DNA of 64,000 nt from Gemmatimonadales bacterium (GCA_050733195.1 JBOHSH010000045.1:16088-80087); one strand, 5' to 3'. Shown: positions 1 through 52,701, numbered from the stretch's first letter. The notes: generated from the letters alone by a model not told the origin. Numbers and translations: made by a program.

Positions 1-109
1 CCCGCCGACCCCGAGGTCCTCCGGCTCCGCGACACGCTCGCCTGACCCGGGGCTCCGCCCCGCGCTTCTCCGGCCCTGGGTTTGCATACCGGTGGGTCGG
101 GGGAATCTC

Positions 110-514
110 ATGAAACGTTGGCGCAACTTCACGGTGGCGCTCCTGGCGCTCGCCTCGGACGGGTGCGGCTTCGAGCCGCTCGGGGCCGAGGGCTGGGCGG
201 CGCCCCCGGCCTATCGCGTCTGGTGGGAACGGACCGAGGCTTGCTCGGGACTCCGCGGCGCGTTCGAGCAGATGGAATGGTTCGTGGTGCCCGGCGACCG
301 GTTCGCCTGCCCCAGCGGGACCTGCGCCGGACGCTGGGAGCCCGGACGGATCTTCCTGGCCAGCGCCTGGGCTCACGACGAGATGGTGGTGCGTCACGAG
401 ATCCTGCACGCCCTGATCGGACGGGGCGGGCACCCTAACCCGCCCTTCGGGGCAGGCTGCCCGCTCACCCGGGAGAGCTGGCCCGGGAGCTACGGCGCCG
501 CCGCGATCGACTGA
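110..514 (+). CDS. small putative lipoprotein with HExxH (zincin-like) motif
   Basis: ORF 92..514. The ATG at 110 gives MKRWRNFTVALLALASDGC, a signal peptide with a lipobox-like Cys. HEILH motif near the C-terminus. Choosing 110 over GTG 92 is inference. Confidence 0.6.
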   Translation: MKRWRNFTVALLALASDGCGFEPLGAEGWAAPPAYRVWWERTEACSGLRGAFEQMEWFVVPGDRFACPSGTCAGRWEPGRIFLASAWAHDEMVVRHEILHALIGRGGHPNPPFGAGCPLTRESWPGSYGAAAID

Positions 515-523
515 GGCGGGGCG

Positions 524-985
524 TCAGAAGACGCCGCCGGGCCCCGCGATCAGATAGGTGAGCTTGCTGCTGCCGGTGAGGAAGAAGGGGGATTTCGTCC
601 CGAGGTACTGGACGAACTTCGCAAAGAGCCTCGGATCCGGCGTCGTCACGGCGACGCCGATCAGCACGTCCGGATTCGTCCCGCCGAAGTTCTCGTAGTC
701 CAGCAGGTACTTGTCCCGGTCGAACGAGCCGGCCAGCTGGCCGGGCAGGAGCGGCCCGAGGCCGACCGGCACGCCGCCCGCCCCGGTCTCCGGCGGCCAG
801 GTCTCGCTGTCGGCGTGGTAATTGAGCGTGGCGACCGCGATCGCACGGAACTCGTTGGCGACCTGCGCGGCGACCGCGTTGTTCCGGAGATCGACGTACT
901 TGAGCACCGCGATGCCGGCCAGCAGCGTCATCACGATGACGACCGTCATCAGCTCCACGAGCGTGAACCCGCGGCGCTTCTTCAT
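524..985 (-). CDS. type IV pilin / T2SS pseudopilin-like protein (prepilin N-terminal methylation motif)
   Basis: N-terminus MKKRRGFTLVELMTVVIVMTLLAGIAV is a class III signal peptide with G|FTLVE, Glu5 and a hydrophobic helix. No Cys pair. Overlaps the upstream gene by 4 nt. Confidence 0.8.
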   Translation of the reverse strand: MKKRRGFTLVELMTVVIVMTLLAGIAVLKYVDLRNNAVAAQVANEFRAIAVATLNYHADSETWPPETGAGGVPVGLGPLLPGQLAGSFDRDKYLLDYENFGGTNPDVLIGVAVTTPDPRLFAKFVQYLGTKSPFFLTGSSKLTYLIAGPGGVF

Positions 986-1491
986 GGACGCCCTCGATCG
1001 CGCACCGCGATCAGGCTCGAGCCGAGGAACGCCGTGAGCGAGTCGCTCGAGCGGAGGGTGATCACCGAGTCCCCCGAGGTGCCCGTCAGGCTGAAGGCGT
1101 CGCCTGAGGAAGCCTGGTACGTGATGTCGGGACTGCCGCCGCCGGCCTCCGCGAGGGTCGCGGGGAGGCGACCGGCGCGCCGCGCGTAGTCGAAGACCCG
1201 ATGGCGTTCCCGCACCAGCGTGAGCCGCATCGACGCGGCGGCCAGCCGGGGCGGCTCGGGGGGCACCGCTTTCGGGCCCGCGAGCCAGACCGGCTGCACC
1301 ACCAGCAGTACCGCGGCGGCAATGCCGACGACACCCAGGAAGCCGAGTCGCCGGCGGCGGTGGGCCGAGCTCAGCCGGCCGAAGCGCTCCGCGTCCTGCT
1401 TGGCCTCCTGATCCTTGATCGCCGCGCGCGCCGCCTCGTACAGGTTGGTCTTGCTGTCGCGGCGCATGGTCTCCTGACGGGGTCCCGTCAC
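982..1491 (-). CDS. hypothetical single-pass membrane protein
   Basis: 169 aa ORF with a charged N-terminus, one hydrophobic segment (LGFLGVVGIAAAVLLVVQPVWL) and an extracytoplasmic Ser/Thr-rich domain. Translationally coupled to the pilin gene by a 4 nt overlap. No family recognised. Confidence 0.6.
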   Translation of the reverse strand: MTGPRQETMRRDSKTNLYEAARAAIKDQEAKQDAERFGRLSSAHRRRRLGFLGVVGIAAAVLLVVQPVWLAGPKAVPPEPPRLAAASMRLTLVRERHRVFDYARRAGRLPATLAEAGGGSPDITYQASSGDAFSLTGTSGDSVITLRSSDSLTAFLGSSLIAVRDRGRP

Positions 1492-1501
1492 GCGTCTCTC
1501 C

Positions 1502-1879
1502 TCACCGGTCGAGCGGCAAGCCCGCGAGCGCGCGGGTCACCAGAGTGGGGAACGTCGCCACGTCGATCGGCTTCGTGATGTAGTCGTCGAAACCGGCCGT
1601 CCTGGCCTTCTCCCGATCTCCCGTCATCGCGTGCGCCGTCAGTGCAATCACCCGCACCGAAGACCACGGCGAATTCCGGATTTCTGCAAGGAGCTCGAAC
1701 CCGTCCCGGCCGGGGAGCTGGATGTCCATCAGCACGAGCTCAGGTTGTGTCCCCTCAAGCGCTTGCCAGAGCCCTTCGCCCGAAGCGAGCCCGGTGACCT
1801 GGTGCCCACTGATCCCGAGGATCGCTCGGAAGAGCTTCATGTTGTCCGGATTATCCTCAACGATCAAGATCCGGGCCAT
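1502..1879 (-). CDS. single-domain response regulator (CheY-like receiver)
   Basis: 125 aa: ILIVEDNPDN, LVLMDIQLPGRDG (phospho-acceptor Asp), VIALTA, ITKP. All canonical REC residues are present. Confidence 0.9.
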   Translation of the reverse strand: MARILIVEDNPDNMKLFRAILGISGHQVTGLASGEGLWQALEGTQPELVLMDIQLPGRDGFELLAEIRNSPWSSVRVIALTAHAMTGDREKARTAGFDDYITKPIDVATFPTLVTRALAGLPLDR

Positions 1880-1888
1880 GACACCTCG

Positions 1889-4099
1889 TTAGGACATTCG
1901 GGCACGTCGTAGCACTGCTCGCACCCGGGCCTGCAGCGACTGGGGCTGGACGGGCTTGGAGAGATAATCCTGGGCACCGAGATCCAGCACCTGGGCCTCG
2001 GTGTCATCGACCCGCGCGGTGAGGACGATAACGGGGATGCTCGATGTGAGCACCCGGGCGCGCAGCTCCTCGAGCACGCCGAGGCCGTCGAGCCGGGGCA
2101 TGTCGATGTCCAGGATCATCAGGTCGAAGGGCCCCGATTCGATCGCGTCGAGAGCGTCGAGGCCGTCGGCGGACTCGACGACCTCGTAGCCTTCCCGCTC
2201 GAGGATCCCGCGCACCAGGCGCCGCATCTGACGGTCGTCATCCGCGATGAGAATACGGGTCTTGCCGCCGGCCGAACCGGACGCAGCCATCGCCGAACGA
2301 ACCGGCCCGGGTACCGCGCTCACCGGCGCGGGTTCGGGTGCCACGGCCTCCTCCTCCGTGCCTCTCTCCCCGAGGACGCGGACGGCCTCGTCGAGCGACG
2401 TCTGCCCCTGCCAGACGCGCTCGAGCGCGCTCTCCCAGAGCGACCGCATGCCAAGGGCTCGGGACGCCGTCGCGAGCGCGTCGGGCTGTGCCCCCTGCTC
2501 GATCCGTTTGGCGACCGCGTCGTCGATGGGGAGGATCTCGAGCACCGAGAGCCGGCCCCGGAATCCGGTCCCCCCGCACGCCTTGCAGCCGACGGCGCGG
2601 CGCGGCGTGGCCGCGCGCTCGGCGGGCGGGCGCGCCTCGCGCGGAAGCTCCGACACGTCGATGGGAACCGAGCACGGCGCACACAGCTGGCGGACCAGCC
2701 TCTGGGCCACGATGCCCTTGAGCACCGACGCGATCTTGTAGCTGTCGACCCCGAGATCGCGGAGACGAACGACGGCGCCGGCCGCGTCGTTGGTGTGCAT
2801 CGTGGAGAGAAGGAGGTGGCCGGTGAGTCCGGCCTGGACCGCGATCTCGGCGGTCTCCCGGTCGCGGATCTCGCCGACCAGCAGGATGTCGGGATCCTGG
2901 CGGAGCAGCGAGCGCAGCGCGGTCGCGAAGGTGAATCCCTGGGCCTCGGTCACCTGGAGCTGCGAGATGCCCGGGATGTCGTACTCCACCGGATCCTCGA
3001 CCGTCACGATGTTCACCTTGCCGGTCCGGAGCTCGTTGATGACGGCGTACAGCGTCGTCGTCTTACCGCTACCGGTGGGCCCGGTGACGAGCACCACGCC
3101 TTCGCGGTGCCCGAGCAGCCGGCGGAACACCTGCTCGTCCGCCGCGGGAAGGCCGAGGTCCGCGACGCTGGTGCGCAGGTTGGCCTTGTCCAGGATGCGG
3201 ACCACGACCTTTTCGCCGCGCCGGGCCACCGGCGCCGTCGCGATCCGGAGATCCACATGCTTGCCGTCGACCCGTACCGCCGCCCGCCCGTCGTGCGGAT
3301 GCAGCGGATCGGTGACGTCGAGCTTCGCGAGGATCTTGATCCGGCGAACCAGCGCGGGACCGGCCGTCGCCGGAAGCCGCATGACTTCCCGCAGCACGCC
3401 GTCGATCCGGTATCGAACCGACGTCCCATCGGAGAGCGGCTCGGCGTGGATGTCGCTGGCCCCCTCGCGGACGCCGTCGCCGATCATCGCGTCCACGAGA
3501 CGCGTCATGGGGGCGTCGAGCGCGGGGTCGCGGTGCGGCGTCACGACCGGCCCTTCCTCCACCGTCTCGAGCCGGGCCGGCTCGAGCCCGTCGAGGAGCC
3601 GCATGATGCTCTTTTCCGGCCGGTAGAGGTCGTCGATTTTCTCGGCGATTGCCGCCGGTGTCGCAAGCTGCAGGATCACATCGCGACCCGCGACGAAGGC
3701 CAGCGTCCGCTCGAGCTCCGCGTCGCGAGGATCGGAGGCGGCGATGGTGATGGTGCGATCGTCGGCCGTGACCGGGACGACGCCCTGCTTTCGGACCACC
3801 GATTCGGGCAGGAGTACCGCCGCTCGGGGGTCGGTGGCGTCGAGGTCGGCGATACAGACCTTGAAGCGCGTCGACAGTGCCTGGAGGATTTGCGGCTCGG
3901 TGGCGTAACCGCGGCTCACTACCCGTTCCCAAACGCTCTCGCTCCCCCCTCCGCGGAGCTCTTCGGCCTGGACGCTCAGGATAGTCCCCGCTTCAGCCAG
4001 TGCGGCGGCAAGCCAGAGATCGGAGGGTTGGCCGGGGTCGACGGGCATACCAGCACCGCCAGATTCGCCGGGTGAACCGCGGCGAACTCGTGTCCGCAC
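1889..4099 (-). CDS. GspE/PilB-family secretion/pilus assembly ATPase with C-terminal receiver (REC) domain
   Basis: 736 aa. N-terminal T2SSE_N-like region, Walker A GPTGSGKTTT, tetracysteine CAPC...CKAC, an Ala/Pro linker, then a full REC (ILIADDD, LMILDIDMPRLDG, VIVLTA, LSKP) encoded at about 1892..2263. An alternative start is Met17 at 4051. Confidence 0.9.
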   Translation of the reverse strand: MRTRVRRGSPGESGGAGMPVDPGQPSDLWLAAALAEAGTILSVQAEELRGGGSESVWERVVSRGYATEPQILQALSTRFKVCIADLDATDPRAAVLLPESVVRKQGVVPVTADDRTITIAASDPRDAELERTLAFVAGRDVILQLATPAAIAEKIDDLYRPEKSIMRLLDGLEPARLETVEEGPVVTPHRDPALDAPMTRLVDAMIGDGVREGASDIHAEPLSDGTSVRYRIDGVLREVMRLPATAGPALVRRIKILAKLDVTDPLHPHDGRAAVRVDGKHVDLRIATAPVARRGEKVVVRILDKANLRTSVADLGLPAADEQVFRRLLGHREGVVLVTGPTGSGKTTTLYAVINELRTGKVNIVTVEDPVEYDIPGISQLQVTEAQGFTFATALRSLLRQDPDILLVGEIRDRETAEIAVQAGLTGHLLLSTMHTNDAAGAVVRLRDLGVDSYKIASVLKGIVAQRLVRQLCAPCSVPIDVSELPREARPPAERAATPRRAVGCKACGGTGFRGRLSVLEILPIDDAVAKRIEQGAQPDALATASRALGMRSLWESALERVWQGQTSLDEAVRVLGERGTEEEAVAPEPAPVSAVPGPVRSAMAASGSAGGKTRILIADDDRQMRRLVRGILEREGYEVVESADGLDALDAIESGPFDLMILDIDMPRLDGLGVLEELRARVLTSSIPVIVLTARVDDTEAQVLDLGAQDYLSKPVQPQSLQARVRAVLRRARMS

Positions 4100-4106
4100 T
4101 TCGGGT

Positions 4107-4136
4107 TTGCTCCGCTTGAGGTGTTATAACTACAAT
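4107..4136 (+). promoter_or_regulatory. candidate sigma70-type promoter for aroA
   Basis: TTGCTC (4107-4112), an 18 nt spacer, then TACAAT (4131-4136), 23 nt upstream of ATG 4159. Lies in a locally AT-rich divergent intergenic region. Pattern match only. Confidence 0.3.
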
Positions 4137-4158
4137 TCCAGCAAGCAACTAGCAAGCC

Positions 4159-5487
4159 ATGATCGGCAGCGCAGCGAATCGCTACATCTGCCGAATTTCC
4201 ACAGGATCGGCTCGAATGGGTGAGATCCCAAGCCTCCGGGTACCGGGGGACAAGAGCATCACTCACCGACTTCTCCTCCTGGCGGGCCTGGCGCCCGGTG
4301 TATCCAGGATCCGGGGCGCGCTGACTTCGCTCGATGCCCGCTCGACCGCCCGGATTCTGCGAGTTCTTGGCGTGCGCGTTTCGCCGCTTCGGCCGGAAGC
4401 TCAGGTTCGGGTGGTGGGCCGGGGCCGATTCCGCCGGCCGAAGTCTCCGCTCGACTGCGGCAACTCGGGTACGACGGCGCGACTCGTCATGGGGCTGCTC
4501 GCCGCCCACTCCTTCCGCGCCGTGCTCACCGGCGACGCATCGCTCCGGCGGCGGCCGATGCGACGGGTCAGCGAGCCCCTCGAGCGCATGGGCGCCCGGT
4601 TCGAGGGGAGAAACGCCGATCGGCTCCCGATCGCCATTCGCGGCGGGCCGCTTCGGGAGCTGTCCTGGGAGCTTCCCGTCTCGAGCGCGCAGATCAAGGG
4701 CGCGCTGCTGCTCGCGGGGCTCGCCGGCGCGCGCGCCGTCTCGCTCCGCGAGCCCGCGGGCCTCTCCCGCGACCACACCGAGCGGCTGCTCCGCGCCTTC
4801 GGCTTCACGGTGCGAAGCGGGGACGACGGCTGGGTGCATTTCGAGCCCGACGGCCGGCTCGAGTCGTTCGATCTCACGGTCCCCGGCGATCCGTCGTCCG
4901 CGGCCTTTCTCGTCGGCGCGGCCCTTCTCTCGGAGACTCCCCTCCGGATCGAAGGTGTGGGCATCAACCCGACCCGCACGGGCTTCCTGCGCGTGCTCGA
5001 GCGGATGGGCGCCGTGGTCGAGGTCGAGGACGCGCGCGACGAAGGGGGAGAGCCCGTCGGCAATCTCCTCGTGACCCCGGCTTCGCTGACGGCGGTCACC
5101 GTGGAGGCGGGGGAGATTCCCTCGCTGATCGACGAGATCCCGATGCTGGCCGTGCTCGCCTCGCGGGCGCGCGGGGTCTCGCGCTTTCACGACGTCGGCG
5201 AGCTTCGAGTCAAGGAGAGCAACCGGCTCGCGCTGCTGGCGGAGAACCTCCGCGGGCTCGGCGCGGACGCGCGCGTCGACGGCGACGCGCTCGAGATCGA
5301 CGGGGGATCCCCGCCGCCGCGGGGGCGGGTCCGGACCGAGGGCGATCACCGGATCGCGATGGCGTTCGCGGTGCTCGGCCTGGCGCCGGGGGCCCGGGTG
5401 GCGATCGATGACCTGGGCTGCGCGGCGGTGAGCTTTCCCGGATTCGACCGGGTGCTGCAACGCCTGCGCCGGAGGCGTTCCGCATGA
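4159..5487 (+). CDS. aroA: 3-phosphoshikimate 1-carboxyvinyltransferase (EPSP synthase)
   Basis: VPGDKSITHRLLLLAGLA motif and full-length similarity to the AroA family. An alternative start is ATG 4216. Confidence 0.9.
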   Translation: MIGSAANRYICRISTGSARMGEIPSLRVPGDKSITHRLLLLAGLAPGVSRIRGALTSLDARSTARILRVLGVRVSPLRPEAQVRVVGRGRFRRPKSPLDCGNSGTTARLVMGLLAAHSFRAVLTGDASLRRRPMRRVSEPLERMGARFEGRNADRLPIAIRGGPLRELSWELPVSSAQIKGALLLAGLAGARAVSLREPAGLSRDHTERLLRAFGFTVRSGDDGWVHFEPDGRLESFDLTVPGDPSSAAFLVGAALLSETPLRIEGVGINPTRTGFLRVLERMGAVVEVEDARDEGGEPVGNLLVTPASLTAVTVEAGEIPSLIDEIPMLAVLASRARGVSRFHDVGELRVKESNRLALLAENLRGLGADARVDGDALEIDGGSPPPRGRVRTEGDHRIAMAFAVLGLAPGARVAIDDLGCAAVSFPGFDRVLQRLRRRRSA

Positions 5488-44834: not shown

Positions 44835-46178
44835 ATGTCTCTGTTGGAGCCGTTCTGGAGGTGGCTGCGCCGGGAGGAGCCGGCTGCGTGGGCGCCCGGC
44901 GACGGGCCGCCCGTGCTCGAATGGGTGAGGCGCGCCAACGCCGCGCAGGGCGCCTGGCTGGTCGGGTCGGGAACCCGGGAGACTTCGGCGCCGGCCGGGG
45001 GAATTCCGGCGGAGACGGATCGCCTCGTGCGCGTCCGGCTCGAGCAGCATCGCCTGGGCGACGCGCAGGGCGTCGAGCGTCTCGATCGCGGGTTGCTCGT
45101 CTACGCGTCGCTCGACGGACGGGCCGCGGCCCTGCTCCTGCCGGACGGAGCGTCGGCGTCGCGCCGCGAGCTCGCACGGCACGACCTCGCCCGGCTCGTC
45201 GACTACGACCGCTGGCGGCCGATCCTCGCCGAAGTCACCCGCCAGCAGGGCACGCCCGGAGAATCCGTCGAGAGCATCGCGCTCAGGCTCGCGCATCAGC
45301 TGGAACGCCAGCTGGGGGTCGAGGCGGCCGTGGCGCTTCCCCGGGGATCGGTCGTCGAGATCGCCGGAGTCTCGCTCCGCTCGGATCGGCGCCTCATGGG
45401 GACCGTCCTCGACGATTCCAGCCCTCTCGCCCGCGTGGCCAGGGGCCAGTCGGGCGACCTGGCCGGCGTCGACGATCCGCTCGGCGGCGCGATCGGCGAC
45501 CGCCGGAACCGCTGGGGCCTTGCCTACGTGGCACCCATCCCGTGGAGCGGGAGCCCGGTCGGGGCGGTGGCGGTCTGGTCCCCCAGCGGCACCGAGCCCC
45601 GAGGGGGGGCCCTGGCGGCGTTCCGCGCCACGCTCGACGCCGCCGGCCCGCGGCTCCAGGCGGCCACGGACCGCCGCACGCTCGCGGAGATGGCGATACG
45701 CGATCCGCTCACGGGCGCGCTCAACCGGCGCGGGCTGGACGAGCGACTCCGCTCCGTCGCGTCGGGTGTGGGTGCGCTGGTCTACGCCGACCTCGATCAC
45801 TTCAAGAAGCTCAACGACACCCTGGGCCACCCTGCCGGGGACCAGGCGCTCATCCACTTCGCCCGGCTGCTGGAGCAGGCGGTGCGCGACGGCGATGTCG
45901 TCGCACGCATCGGCGGGGAAGAGTTTGCCGTCTGGTTGCCGGGGGCGTCTCTCGAGCGGGGCCGCCAGGTGGCGGAGCGGGTGCGCCAGGCCTTCTCCTG
46001 GAGCGACTGGCGGTGGCAGGGTGAGCGATGGCCGCTGACGGCGTCGTTCGGCGTCGCCGCCTGTCCGGAGACCGCGCCACGAGTGGAGCTGCTCCCCGCG
46101 CAGGCCGACCGCGCCCTTTACACGGCCAAGAGGGAGGGGAGGGACCGGGTGGCGGTGGAGCAGGGAGTTAGGGACTAG
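44835..46178 (+). CDS. diguanylate cyclase (GGDEF) with uncharacterised N-terminal sensory region
   Basis: C-terminal DPLTGALNRRG, DLDHFKKLND, active site RIGGEEFAV and YTAKREGRDRV. The N-terminal approximately 285 aa are unassigned, possibly GAF-like. Confidence 0.85.
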   Translation: MSLLEPFWRWLRREEPAAWAPGDGPPVLEWVRRANAAQGAWLVGSGTRETSAPAGGIPAETDRLVRVRLEQHRLGDAQGVERLDRGLLVYASLDGRAAALLLPDGASASRRELARHDLARLVDYDRWRPILAEVTRQQGTPGESVESIALRLAHQLERQLGVEAAVALPRGSVVEIAGVSLRSDRRLMGTVLDDSSPLARVARGQSGDLAGVDDPLGGAIGDRRNRWGLAYVAPIPWSGSPVGAVAVWSPSGTEPRGGALAAFRATLDAAGPRLQAATDRRTLAEMAIRDPLTGALNRRGLDERLRSVASGVGALVYADLDHFKKLNDTLGHPAGDQALIHFARLLEQAVRDGDVVARIGGEEFAVWLPGASLERGRQVAERVRQAFSWSDWRWQGERWPLTASFGVAACPETAPRVELLPAQADRALYTAKREGRDRVAVEQGVRD

Positions 46179-49734: not shown

Positions 49735-52701
49735 ATGCGCTGGCGGCCCCAACACAAGTCTCCCCCCAGGGGAGGCGAGTCCAATGGACTGCTCAGGAGC
49801 CGGTTCGGCCGGCGCCTGCTCGGGCTGTTCGTCGTGTGCGCCCTGCTTCCGACGAGCCTCGTAGCGATCCTGTCGTTCCATTCGGTTGCCGACCAGCTGT
49901 CCAGCCAGAGCGAGGACCGCCGCCACGCCCTGGTCGGCTCGATCGGCCGCACGATCTACGACCGGCTCCTGGCTCTGGAATCGGATCTGCGCGGCGCCGA
50001 TCTCCGGCCATCCGCCTGCTCGAGCGCCGCGTCCCGCCGGGATCCCGACGCCATCGACGACGCCTGCGGGCTGGGGGCGCTCGCCGTCGGCCTGCGTTCG
50101 CTCGTGGCCGTGCCGGACCGGGGCCCGGTGAGGCCGCTCTTCGGGGAGCTCGACAGCTCGCTGCTCGGCACATTTCGCGATTCGCTCCGGCCCGTCCAGA
50201 GCGCCGTGCTCACGGGACGCAACGCGGCGGGCGAGCCGACCATCTACCTCGCGCACCGCAAGTCCGGATCGGCCGGGGGGTACGTGCTCCTCGGCGAGGT
50301 CTACCTCCCCGCCATCTGGGGGGAGGGCGACGAGCACGCCCTTCCCGCTTCGATGCGGCTCACGGTCTGGGACCCCGGAAGCGGGGCCCTGCTCCACTCT
50401 GCGGGAGACACGCTGGTGGTACCGCCCGCGGTGCTCGGCGCGATGCAGCGATCGCCGACGGGCGCCTTCGAGTGGCGTGGCGAAGCGACCCGCTCCGTCG
50501 CCACCTACTGGTCGCTTCCGCGCACCCGTCGATTCCGCATGCCGGAGCTGCGGGTGGTCTTGAGCGAGCGCGCCGAAGACGTCATGGCGCCGATGGCGCA
50601 GTTCTCCAACACGTTCCCGCTGGTGCTCCTCGCCTCGATCGGCCTGGTCGTGATTCTCGGACTGAGCCAGATCCGCCGCAGCGTCCTCCCGCTGGGCGAG
50701 CTGCAGCGCGGAACCAGCCGGATCGCGCACCGGGAGTTCGACAGCCGCGTGCAGATCACGAGCGGCGACGAGCTCGAAGACCTGGCCGGAGCGTTCAACA
50801 CGATGGCCTCGCAGCTCGGCCGGCAGTTCCGGGCGCTGTCCACGGCCGCGGAGCTGGACCGGGCGGTGCTGTCCTCGGTGGACACGACCCGCATCGTCGA
50901 CACGGTCCTGGCAAAGCTCCCGGAGCTCTGCGCCTGTGAAGCCCTCGCGATCACGCTCTTCGACGCCTCCCCGGGCTCCGCCGGCGCCGCGACGGCGTGG
51001 GTGGCGGAGCCGGGCGGACCGGTCCGGCGCTGGCCTGTGCCGATCGAAGTCCCGGCGGCGGAGCTCGACGCCGTGCGTGCGTCGCGCGAGCGGCTCGTCG
51101 TGGAGGCGGCGGAGTCCGCTGCCCCGGCGTACCTGCGGACGCTCGCCTCGGACCCGCCGCGCACCGTCGTCGTGTTCCCGCTGTTCTACCGGGACGAGCT
51201 CCTGGGACTGCTGCTGTTGCGCATGGATGCCGCGCAGCTCGCCCAGGAGGAGGAGGAGCTGCTGCAGGCGCGGCGGCTGGCGGATCAGGTCGCCGTGGCG
51301 CTCGCCAACGCGCGCATGGTGGACCAGGTCCGCTTCCTCGCCTTCTACGACAGCCTGACCCGGCTGCCGAACCGGGTTCTCTTCAAGGAACGCCTGGCGC
51401 AGGCGATCGCGCGGGCCGCGCGCCGGCAGAAGCTGGTGGGCGTCTGCTTCCTCGATCTCGACCACTTCAGCCGGATCAACGACACGCTGGGCCACGAGAC
51501 GGGCGACCGCCTCGTGCAGGACGTCGCGGCCCGGCTGACCGCCTGCACGCGGCGGGGCGACAGCGTGGCGCGCTTCGGCGAGGAGCCGGCGATCGAAGTG
51601 GCGCGCCTTGGAGGAGACGAGTTCACCGTCATGCTGCCCGACCTCGACGAGCCGCAGGACGCGGTTCGGGTCGTGCGCCGGATCCTCGAGTCCTTCACCC
51701 AGCCGTTCCGTCTCGGCGGGCACGAGGTGTTCGTCACCACCAGCGCGGGTGTCGCGATCTATCCCTTCGACGGCAGCGACATCGAGGATCTGCTCAAGAA
51801 CGCCGACGCGGCGATGTTCAACGCGAAAGAGCAGGGACGCAACGTCTACCGGCTCTACTCGGCCTCGATGAACGCCGAGGCGGTGGATCGCCTGCGCACG
51901 GAGCAGCAGCTGCGGCGCGCGGTCGAGAGCGGCGAGTTCACGATGCACTACCAGCCCATCCTCGATTCCCAGTCCGGCCGGATCACCGGCGCGGAAGCCC
52001 TGGTGCGCTGGCAGCACCCGGATCTCGGCCTCGTTTTCCCGGGCTCGTTCATCAAGCTCTGCGAGGAGAGCGGGCTGATCGTGCCGCTCGGCACCTGGAT
52101 TCTCCGCTCCGTGTGCGAGCAGAGCCGGGCCTGGCGCGAGGCCGGCCTGGGCCCGCTGACGATCTCGGTCAACCTGTCGGGACGCCAGCTGCACTCCGAG
52201 GAGCTGGTGGGGACGGTGCAGGAGGCGCTGCGCGCGACCGGCACGCCGCCGGAGTCTCTGGTGCTCGAGCTCACGGAGAGCATGCTGATGGATCCGGCGG
52301 GCCAGGTCGGGGCCACGATCCGCGAGCTCGCCGGTCTCGGGGTCGGGCTCGCGATCGATGACTTCGGCACCGGCTATTCGTCGCTCAGCTACCTCAAGCA
52401 CTTCCCGGTCGGCACCGTCAAGATCGACCAGTCGTTCGTCGCGGACGTCACGGAGAAGGCGGACGCCGCGGCGATCGTCACCGCCATCATCGCGCTGACC
52501 CGAGCGCTCGGCATGGACGTCGTCGCGGAAGGCGTCGAGACCGAGAGCCAGGCCGCTTTCCTGCGAAAGCACGGCTGCACCAAGCTGCAAGGATTCCTTT
52601 TCGGGCGGCCTACGACGCCGGAGGGATTCTCTGCGGGTGCGGAGGAGTCGCTTCGAGCCGTCACGGCTCCGGGCGGCCGGTCGAAGGCCGCCCGGCGCTG
52701 A
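49735..52701 (+). CDS. membrane-bound GGDEF-EAL signalling protein with periplasmic sensor, HAMP and GAF-like regions
   Basis: 988 aa. Two TM segments flank a domain of about 260 aa. HAMP (DELEDLAGAFNTMASQL), a GAF-like segment, GGDEF (RLGGDEFTVML), and EAL (EALVRWQHP, DDFGTGYSSL, VAEGVET). Confidence 0.9.
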   Translation: MRWRPQHKSPPRGGESNGLLRSRFGRRLLGLFVVCALLPTSLVAILSFHSVADQLSSQSEDRRHALVGSIGRTIYDRLLALESDLRGADLRPSACSSAASRRDPDAIDDACGLGALAVGLRSLVAVPDRGPVRPLFGELDSSLLGTFRDSLRPVQSAVLTGRNAAGEPTIYLAHRKSGSAGGYVLLGEVYLPAIWGEGDEHALPASMRLTVWDPGSGALLHSAGDTLVVPPAVLGAMQRSPTGAFEWRGEATRSVATYWSLPRTRRFRMPELRVVLSERAEDVMAPMAQFSNTFPLVLLASIGLVVILGLSQIRRSVLPLGELQRGTSRIAHREFDSRVQITSGDELEDLAGAFNTMASQLGRQFRALSTAAELDRAVLSSVDTTRIVDTVLAKLPELCACEALAITLFDASPGSAGAATAWVAEPGGPVRRWPVPIEVPAAELDAVRASRERLVVEAAESAAPAYLRTLASDPPRTVVVFPLFYRDELLGLLLLRMDAAQLAQEEEELLQARRLADQVAVALANARMVDQVRFLAFYDSLTRLPNRVLFKERLAQAIARAARRQKLVGVCFLDLDHFSRINDTLGHETGDRLVQDVAARLTACTRRGDSVARFGEEPAIEVARLGGDEFTVMLPDLDEPQDAVRVVRRILESFTQPFRLGGHEVFVTTSAGVAIYPFDGSDIEDLLKNADAAMFNAKEQGRNVYRLYSASMNAEAVDRLRTEQQLRRAVESGEFTMHYQPILDSQSGRITGAEALVRWQHPDLGLVFPGSFIKLCEESGLIVPLGTWILRSVCEQSRAWREAGLGPLTISVNLSGRQLHSEELVGTVQEALRATGTPPESLVLELTESMLMDPAGQVGATIRELAGLGVGLAIDDFGTGYSSLSYLKHFPVGTVKIDQSFVADVTEKADAAAIVTAIIALTRALGMDVVAEGVETESQAAFLRKHGCTKLQGFLFGRPTTPEGFSAGAEESLRAVTAPGGRSKAARR

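Follow-up and report, generated by a model that had tools for sequence, protein, structure and literature searches.

What might a pilus or secretion ATPase that carries its own receiver domain be doing beside a single pilin, with none of the usual assembly machinery close by? This question is posed by a four-gene unit at positions 524 to 4,099 of a 64,000-nucleotide stretch of DNA from a Gemmatimonadales bacterium (GCA_050733195.1, JBOHSH010000045.1:16088-80087), the whole of which is referred to here as the window. The source is a metagenome-assembled genome (MAG) of a soil bacterium with a GC content of about 70%. The unit encodes an ATPase of the PilB/GspE type with a fused C-terminal receiver (REC), a stand-alone receiver, an orphan membrane protein of 169 amino acids (UNK169) and a prepilin. 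We found that this gene order is conserved in Gemmatimonadales, that fused ATPases of the same kind occur in several phyla, and that no platform gene lay in the flanks of any REC-fused locus searched. The explanation that we favour, with about even confidence, is that the unit is a phosphorylation-gated filament-assembly module that has its own pilin and adaptor and is not self-sufficient, its core machinery being encoded elsewhere.

Organization of the four-gene unit

The unit consists of four tightly packed, head-to-tail open reading frames (ORFs) on the minus strand (1889-4099, 1502-1879, 982-1491 and 524-985). All four were found where a preliminary description of this DNA had placed them, and the spacing that it gave was also the spacing measured: gaps of 9 nt and then 10 nt, followed by a 4-nt overlap between the UNK169 and prepilin genes. 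GC content at third codon positions is 0.81-0.94 in the four ORFs, like that of neighbouring housekeeping genes, and they therefore look like real genes of a genome of this base composition. The features of the unit are the following.

1889..4048, minus strand: gene for the MshEN-T2SSE-REC fusion ATPase, 719 aa from ATG 4048; the maximal ORF, to GTG 4099, encodes 736 aa (Pfam and NCBIfam)
3851..4024, minus strand: MshEN_N-like N-terminal helical region, read against the motif of Wang et al. 2016 and kept among homologues
3608..3850, minus strand: MshEN / T2SSE_N1 domain, residues 84-164 (Pfam PF05157, E 4e-15)
2378..3517, minus strand: T2SSE ATPase core, residues 195-574 (Pfam PF00437, E 3e-120)
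2255..2377, minus strand: Ala/Pro-rich linker of about 40 residues from ATPase to REC, read from the sequence
1919..2254, minus strand: C-terminal receiver (REC), Response_reg, residues 616-727 (Pfam PF00072, E 8e-31)
1502..1879, minus strand: stand-alone single-domain receiver, 125 aa (Pfam PF00072, E 4e-27)
982..1491, minus strand: UNK169, 169-aa bitopic orphan membrane protein without a Pfam family (AlphaFold2 model)
524..985, minus strand: prepilin, 153 aa (Pfam N_methyl and TIGR02532)
4049..4215, no strand: divergent intergenic region shared with aroA, relatively AT-rich, the presumed promoter site

Residues are numbered throughout on the 736-aa maximal ORF. A Pfam search with this ORF matched MshEN, T2SSE and Response_reg in succession, and the T2SSE match spans 366 of the 370 positions of the PF00437 profile. 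In GspE, it is by the MshEN/T2SSE_N1 domain that the ATPase docks on GspL, its membrane partner. Aligned with 40 homologues, the protein matches their N-termini only from about residue 18, and the gene called independently on L085, a 9.5-kb Logan contig with identical genes, encodes 719 aa. For these two reasons the start codon is most likely ATG 4048 rather than GTG 4099. The length of 736 aa in the preliminary description is thus that of the maximal ORF, while the Walker A motif, the tetracysteine and the REC fusion that it reported were all present. The NCBI model of the ATPase (676 aa) begins at V61 of the maximal ORF and drops about 43 conserved N-terminal residues, including the first MshEN_N-like helix pair. 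The window ATPase is 100% identical to one Gemmatimonadales MAG protein.

Conserved residues of the ATPase and the receivers

Conservation of the functional motifs was followed in an alignment of the window protein with 120 homologues (121 sequences, 56-76% identity). The Walker A motif (GPTGSGKTTT), Asp box, Walker B motif and His box are invariant or nearly so. The four cysteines C473, C476, C505 and C508 are present in all 121 sequences; such a zinc-binding tetracysteine is typical of assembly ATPases. In the fused REC, the residues D620/D621, D664, T694 and K715 are kept in 115-121 of the 121 sequences, so that the earlier statement that all phospho-acceptor residues are intact applies to the family as well as to the window protein. 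With its T2SSE domain, motifs, four cysteines and N1 domain, the protein is predicted to be an ATPase of the PilB/GspE (T2SSE) type. The length of the linker that joins this ATPase to the receiver varies across the family from fewer than 10 to more than 250 residues.

Assignment within the superfamily was less specific. Geobacter PilB and Vibrio GspE were the best sequence matches in the PDB, each with a score of about 375 bits. The protein scored 476.9 bits against the NCBIfam PilB equivalog TIGR02538, below the cut-off of 675.65, and 504.1 bits against the GspE equivalog TIGR02533, below the cut-off of 630.25. Judged by these scores, it belongs to the superfamily yet is assignable to neither the PilB nor the GspE equivalog. 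It resembles PilB, GspE and MshE (Geobacter PilB 5TSG/5ZFR, Vibrio GspE 4PHT, V. cholerae MshE) in its N1 and N2-CTD parts, all motifs and the four cysteines, and differs from them in its C-terminal REC, in its equivalog scores and in its degenerate c-di-GMP motifs (see below).

The stand-alone receiver, which the preliminary description had recognized as CheY-like and which Pfam places in Response_reg, is 36% identical to the fused REC. In an alignment of the two, its set of E/D, D, T and K residues is complete, and its best NCBIfam matches are the receiver domains of hybrid kinases. Both receivers are therefore predicted, from their residues, to be phospho-accepting REC domains. In most Gemmatimonadales loci its gene comes immediately after the fusion gene, and a fusion followed by a free REC was also seen in an unrelated lineage (L087).

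Degenerate c-di-GMP motifs in the N-terminal region

The MshEN domain binds cyclic di-GMP (c-di-GMP) through two tandem 24-residue motifs, RLGxx(L/V/I)(L/V/I)xxG(L/V/I)(L/V/I)xxxxLxxxLxxQ (Wang et al. 2016). Both are degenerate in the window ATPase: in place of RLG the first motif has WLA and the second SVW, and neither keeps Q24. The changes of R1 to W or S and of G3 to A or W, read in the sequence and in 40 homologues, fall on residues singled out by Wang et al. 2016. The ATPase accordingly has no c-di-GMP motif of the MshE type, and it has probably lost c-di-GMP binding.

Two c-di-GMP enzymes are encoded in the window, a GGDEF protein (44835-46178, plus strand) and a HAMP-GAF-GGDEF-EAL protein (49735-52701, plus strand). 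The organism therefore signals with c-di-GMP, despite the degenerate-looking MshEN motifs of the ATPase. Control of the unit by c-di-GMP through these two genes was considered and set aside, as they are more than 40 kb distant and the MshEN motifs are degenerate.

The pilin and its orphan partner

The last gene of the unit encodes a prepilin, as had been proposed. Its class III signal, MKKRRG/FTLVELMTVVIVMTLLAGIAVL (KKRRG/FTLVELM, the slash marking the processing site), matches PF07963 (N_methyl, E 4e-7) as well as TIGR02532, and the protein is thus predicted to be a precursor of the type IV pilin or pseudopilin kind. The mature pilin is Cys-free and about 147 aa long, and its globular part matched no specific pilin family. 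Among 16 pilin orthologues and paralogues that are otherwise 18-66% identical, G-1, T+2 and E+5 are invariant. Invariance of G-1 and E+5 at such divergence indicates selection for peptidase cleavage and filament assembly, and we infer from it that a prepilin peptidase is present in the genome.

Gemmatimonadales have two pilin subfamilies, the Cys-free type of the window and one with a C-terminal Cys pair. The Cys-pair pilin (L001, L005, L006, L018-L029) is about 140 aa long when mature, ends in ...CGI...PACY and is usually convergent to the operon. Each copy of it goes with its own UNK169 paralogue; the window lineage is without this subfamily.

UNK169 is made up of a cytoplasmic helix of about 55 aa, which is conserved, a single transmembrane (TM) segment and a small periplasmic domain of 95 residues. 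In an AlphaFold2 model, a long helix runs through the membrane and is followed by an alpha-beta-beta-beta-alpha-alpha domain (predicted local distance difference test score 77.6 for the full length and 89.2 for the periplasmic domain modelled alone). This bitopic model, together with the lack of a Pfam family, agrees with the preliminary description of a single-pass protein of no recognizable family. Homologues form 19 clusters among 5.8 billion proteins, and those that are named all come from Gemmatimonadales. Conserved in the family are a cytoplasmic 'RDSKTxLxEAA' helix, a 'QPxWLxGPK' turn and a 'GRLPATLAEAG' loop.

Several relationships were considered for UNK169 and rejected. It has no Pfam or NCBIfam match, and a Pfam search of 19 members at E<=5 gave nothing consistent; PilN, PilO, GspM and GspL were rejected as relatives on this result. 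A pilin-derived origin was suggested by Foldseek matches of the full-length model to 4d40 (probability 0.93, E 0.22) and, weakly, to the PilV structure 5v23. These disappeared when the isolated domain was compared with the PDB: no pilin was among the matches, and nothing was significant. An hhalign comparison with the neighbouring pilins was also null (probability 0.14). UNK169 is like PilN/PilO and GspL/GspM in topology and size, with a short cytoplasmic part, one TM segment and a small periplasmic domain, and its gene lies between those of the ATPase and the pilin; unlike these proteins, to which no sequence, profile or fold similarity was detected, it has a predicted alpha-beta-beta-beta-alpha-alpha fold. 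The periplasmic fold of PilN, PilO, GspL and GspM is a ferredoxin-like alpha-beta-beta repeat.

The UNK169 gene adjoins the pilin gene in nearly all Gemmatimonadales loci, and in L001, L005, L006 and L029 the two genes have been duplicated together as a cassette. This duplication indicates that the two proteins are functionally linked. The function of UNK169 is informed solely by its topology, its position and its co-duplication with the pilin. In five loci (L011, L015, L017, L030 and L036) there is an extra ORF between aroA and the fusion gene that matches the UNK169 hidden Markov model (HMM) weakly (E 1e-4 to 1e-10); it could be a distant UNK169 paralogue or an artefact of composition.

Assembly genes missing from the neighbourhood

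To list the machinery encoded around the unit, essentially all plausible ORFs of the 64 kb were scanned with Pfam, among them those that lie between the genes first listed. None of these encoded a T2SSF platform, prepilin peptidase, secretin, PilM/N/O, PilT or histidine kinase. The same core genes were missing from about 3.5 kb past the pilin, made up of window positions 1-523 and about 3 kb beyond the window edge on contig L085. The absence of PilC/GspF, prepilin peptidase, PilMNO/secretin and histidine kinase genes, noted for the unit itself in the preliminary description, thus holds for 64 kb and for the DNA just past the pilin end. As the class III signal of the pilin needs a prepilin peptidase and none is encoded locally, the four-gene unit must depend on genes elsewhere in the genome.

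The generic model of the type IV filament superfamily calls for an ATPase and a major pilin together with a platform in the inner membrane (PilC/GspF/TadB), and allows systems encoded at several loci (Denise et al. 2019). Of these components, the window holds an ATPase and a pilin, with no T2SSF.

The remaining genes of the window are ribosomal, tRNA-synthetase, cell-wall, lipid and purine genes, besides the two c-di-GMP enzymes. aroA, whose start was taken from an independent gene call of 423 aa, is divergent to the fusion gene. On the other side, a gene at 92-514 (plus strand) that is convergent to the pilin encodes a protein of 134-140 aa. The preliminary description had called it a lipoprotein gene; a lipobox-like signal (LLALASDGC) is indeed visible by eye, and the description is amended by an HExxH metalloprotease motif (RHEILHAL). 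This protein has no Pfam or NCBIfam family and recurs on L085 and L086 with identical neighbours. On L085, the pilin is followed by the gene for this 134-aa protein, then by PPK2 and then by a LOG-family gene. Rfam and simple consensus scans of positions 1-4600 gave no relevant Rfam element, sigma-70 consensus promoter or operon terminator, and a riboswitch or other RNA element in the leader was rejected on the Rfam result.

Conservation of the unit in Gemmatimonadales

A scan of GTDB species genomes yielded about 35 Gemmatimonadota loci with full-length matches to the ATPase, and these were searched with the UNK169 HMM, the receiver and a prepilin pattern. Of the roughly 30 loci with enough downstream sequence, about 25 keep the gene order fusion, REC, UNK169, pilin. 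The orientation of the pilin gene varies, and it is sometimes convergent. aroA adjoins the fusion gene divergently in 21 of 28 Gemmatimonadota loci. The best 120 clusters (90% identity) of the ATPase all have the architecture MshEN-T2SSE-REC.

A second ATPase-REC subfamily, 44% identical to the window protein, is represented on a 3.68-Mb contig of a Gemmatimonadales MAG (L034, 8952-11995). The fusion gene there overlaps the stop codon of an upstream REC-GGDEF (PleD-like) gene and is followed by SecDF; no pilin or UNK169 gene is nearby.

REC-fused ATPases in other phyla and their separation from platform genes

The wider family was sampled by a search of 1.84 billion representatives, one per cluster of 50% identity. 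Among the best 150 representatives, to which the count refers, at least 114 have a single ATPase core with one C-terminal REC; they are 34-63% identical to the window protein. Fusions of this kind were named or located in Elusimicrobia and Desulfobacterota (L037-L040), and they occur in several phyla. The preliminary description had proposed surveying how often the fusion and its neighbourhood recur. The T2SSE-REC fusion does recur across phyla; the pilin neighbourhood was found only in Gemmatimonadales, with no adjacent prepilin elsewhere.

To examine linkage to the platform, all fetched loci were searched by jackhmmer, starting from a verified T2SSF protein of a canonical locus, and those with 3 kb or more on each side were compared. 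Of 28 canonical PilB/GspE loci, which lack the REC, 23 have a T2SSF gene in their flanks; of the 26 REC-fused loci, none has (Fisher p = 9e-11); the loci compared are phylogenetically non-independent, and the fused set spans several phyla. The separation of ATPase and platform genes seen in the window is therefore a property of the REC-fused loci as a group.

The contexts in which the fusion gene was found outside the four-gene unit are varied. In L087 (6606-12650) it lies after genes for an NtrC-type regulator, a REC-Hpt-REC protein and a REC-HisKA protein, and is followed by a free receiver. In L088 (1-12151, from a bacterium) it overlaps the last gene of a flagellar late-gene cluster, start on stop; the cluster encodes FlgM, FlgN, FlgK, FlgL, FliW, flagellins, CsrA, FliD and FliS, which hints at a link of the ATPase family to the control of flagellar motility. 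The fusion gene of L034 overlaps a REC-GGDEF gene, as described above. In L003 it lies among lysine-biosynthesis genes, and in L004 among genes for Ser/Thr protein kinases, with a PAS sensor kinase gene about 0.8 kb upstream of it.

Other architectures were present among the representatives. About 12 of them (P0146-P0171, about 1000 aa each) have two complete T2SSE cores in tandem after a single MshEN. Further forms are ATPase-REC-TPR (P0183), ATPase-REC-GAF (P0236), ATPase with three RECs (P0176) and a protein of 1513 aa (P0220), in which the C-terminal 760 residues are without a Pfam match. The form with an N-terminal REC is represented by P0287.

In a crude neighbour-joining tree of ATPase cores, one clade contained 104 of 150 REC-fused and none of 30 platform-linked canonical proteins; widened to include 148 of the 150 REC-fused proteins, it takes in 10 canonical ATPases. 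When scored on the core only, fused and canonical proteins are interleaved. A single origin of the fusion was not established by this crude tree and these interleaved scores.

A search for PilC with an Eisenbacteria seed (L069) gave no match labelled Gemmatimonadales among the best 120; those named came from Eisenbacteria, Acidobacteria, Planctomycetes and Omnitrophica.

Relation to described systems

The preliminary description put the unit forward as a candidate for an undescribed system. The fused architecture itself is neither rare nor previously unnoticed, given the 114 or more representatives that have it, the JGI label 'PilB-like/CheY-like' and the N-terminal-REC form catalogued by Wang et al. 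2016. Supplementary Table 4 of that paper contains REC-MshEN-T2SSE (Gmet_3473 of Geobacter metallireducens), GAF-MshEN-T2SSE and MshEN-T2SSE-cNMPbind; MshEN-T2SSE-REC is not in the table. Gmet_3473 is like the window protein in having a receiver fused to an MshEN-T2SSE ATPase, and is likewise uncharacterised. It differs in that its receiver is N-terminal, whereas that of the window protein is C-terminal, the arrangement that is dominant among the relatives.

The narrower statement, that no characterised PilB/GspE with a fused receiver is known, did stand: literature searches found no characterised T2SSE (PilB/GspE) ATPase of this kind, and a 2024 review of PilB regulation mentions none. The domain combination itself is not new, as it is visible in routine Pfam and JGI annotation. 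What appears to be undescribed so far is how large the family is and how systematically it is kept apart from platform genes, and also the Gemmatimonadales module with an orphan partner and a private pilin.

Receivers that act on an extension ATPase are known as separate proteins. In Synechocystis, PixG must be phosphorylated to bind PilB1, and it is counteracted by PixH (PMC11181946). Regulators of the PatA type bind both PilB1 and PilC; for PixE, which is one of them, the contact with PilB1 has been mapped to the PATAN domain. PilG and PilH of P. aeruginosa play similar roles (2024 review of PilB control). In both cases a receiver acts on the extension ATPase and a second, single-domain receiver drains phosphoryl groups, and the window unit parallels this arrangement in having exactly one motor-attached and one free receiver. 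The difference is that the receivers there are separate proteins in a Che-like system with its own kinase, whereas the window receiver is covalently fused and no kinase or Che gene is nearby.

A possible mechanism and its alternatives

If the unit is a phosphorylation-gated module, its motor would be a catalytically competent hexameric ATPase of the PilB/GspE family, to which the C-terminal receiver would be tethered by the flexible Ala/Pro linker. An unlinked histidine kinase or phosphorelay would phosphorylate D664 and so turn the motor on or off or control its recruitment. Because both N-terminal c-di-GMP motifs are degenerate, this receiver input may replace the c-di-GMP input of MshE-type ATPases. 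The adjacent single-domain receiver would compete for the same phosphodonor, as a phosphate sink or a relay, in the way that PixH does with PixG and PilH with PilG. UNK169 would serve as a pilin-specific inner-membrane adaptor, its cytoplasmic helix reaching the ATPase and its periplasmic domain the pilin. Cleavage of the prepilin would fall to a prepilin peptidase and its polymerisation to a PilC/GspF platform, both encoded elsewhere; the filament, if surface-exposed, would leave through an outer-membrane secretin, also encoded elsewhere.

The arrangement in L087, where a fusion and a free REC lie inside a phosphorelay cluster with an Hpt protein, speaks for this mechanism. Other results weigh against it. 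Coupling to PilC/GspF is assumed, and the flanks of the 26 REC-fused loci contain no platform gene. No cognate kinase was identified in the 64-kb window. UNK169, which is given the role of adaptor, resembles no known assembly protein. Outside Gemmatimonadales no prepilin adjoins the fusion, which sits instead in signalling, flagellar or biosynthetic contexts, and the ancestral role of the family may have been other than filament assembly.

The fusion might alternatively be the genome's sole pilB, that is, its only type IVa pilus (T4aP) extension ATPase, displaced from dispersed pilC, pilMNOPQ and pilD genes and given the REC as an added input. JGI annotates the family as PilB, and the scores against PilB and GspE structures are nearly equal. 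It is typical of T4aP systems that their genes are spread over several loci (Denise et al. 2019), and in one survey type IV pilus genes were reported for Gemmatimonadota MAGs of every environment sampled except marine. Entries for pilC/pilQ or Gemmatimonas were absent from the supplementary material available for Mujakić et al. 2023 and Denise et al. 2019. We nevertheless consider a sole pilB rather unlikely. The protein falls below the NCBIfam cut-offs for both PilB (477 against 676 bits) and GspE (504 against 630). Gemmatimonas aurantiaca is listed with two MshEN proteins, which makes more than one such ATPase per genome plausible, and the second ATPase-REC subfamily of L034 also occurs in Gemmatimonadales. 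The dedicated UNK169-pilin cassette, moreover, suggests a specialised rather than a housekeeping filament.

The varied contexts of the family raise another alternative, in which the protein is a signalling or regulatory ATPase that polymerises no pilin. It could be a competitor or clutch at the platform of another machine, such as pili or flagella, or the motor of an unrelated membrane process, with the pilin merely co-regulated. This would fit a family that adjoins a platform gene at none of 26 loci and has no adjacent pilin outside Gemmatimonadales, whose members lie in the phosphorelay context of L087, in the flagellar context of L088 and after REC-GGDEF in L034, and whose relatives have gained GAF, TPR and extra REC domains. 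However, the catalytic motifs and the zinc-binding cysteines are strictly kept, and in Gemmatimonadales translational coupling to the pilin and its partner has been maintained over deep divergence. We also know of no precedent for a PilB-type ATPase with a role outside filaments. A purely regulatory ATPase is therefore unlikely.

Very unlikely, in our view, is that C-terminal-REC T2SSE ATPases form a distinct class of traffic ATPases that work without a platform, with UNK169 in Gemmatimonadales coupling a phosphorelay-driven motor directly to a dedicated pilin; this reading is compatible with the data in that platform genes are absent from the flanks throughout the family. A self-contained minimal filament or secretion module, along the lines of the reduced module with a membrane adaptor raised in the preliminary description, in which ATPase, UNK169 and pilin would suffice and UNK169 would stand in for PilC/GspF, is highly improbable: the platform is absent at every REC-fused locus examined, UNK169 is paired with the pilin in nearly all loci and its conserved cytoplasmic segment could contact the ATPase, but no positive evidence for such a module was found, a bitopic protein with one TM segment and a 95-residue periplasmic domain is unlike the polytopic platforms and resembles no platform, PilN/O, GspL/M or pilin family, the pilin needs a prepilin peptidase that the module does not encode, the generic model of Denise et al. 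2019 requires a platform, and a diderm would also need an outer-membrane conduit.

Significance

How pilus extension motors are switched is not settled. The known inputs are c-di-GMP, through MshEN, partner proteins such as PilZ-FimX, and receivers of the PixG/PilG type. The covalent fusion of motor and receiver described here argues that receivers act directly on PilB-type hexamers, and it offers a simple system in which the input would fall on one aspartate, D664, within a single polypeptide. Gemmatimonadota are an abundant and poorly cultured soil phylum, for which the conserved module, with a pilin and an orphan partner of its own, is a candidate surface filament. The large family to which its motor belongs extends over several phyla, is separated from platform genes and has signalling and flagellar neighbourhoods, and may thus reveal a way of regulating traffic ATPases, or of using them, that is still unexplored.

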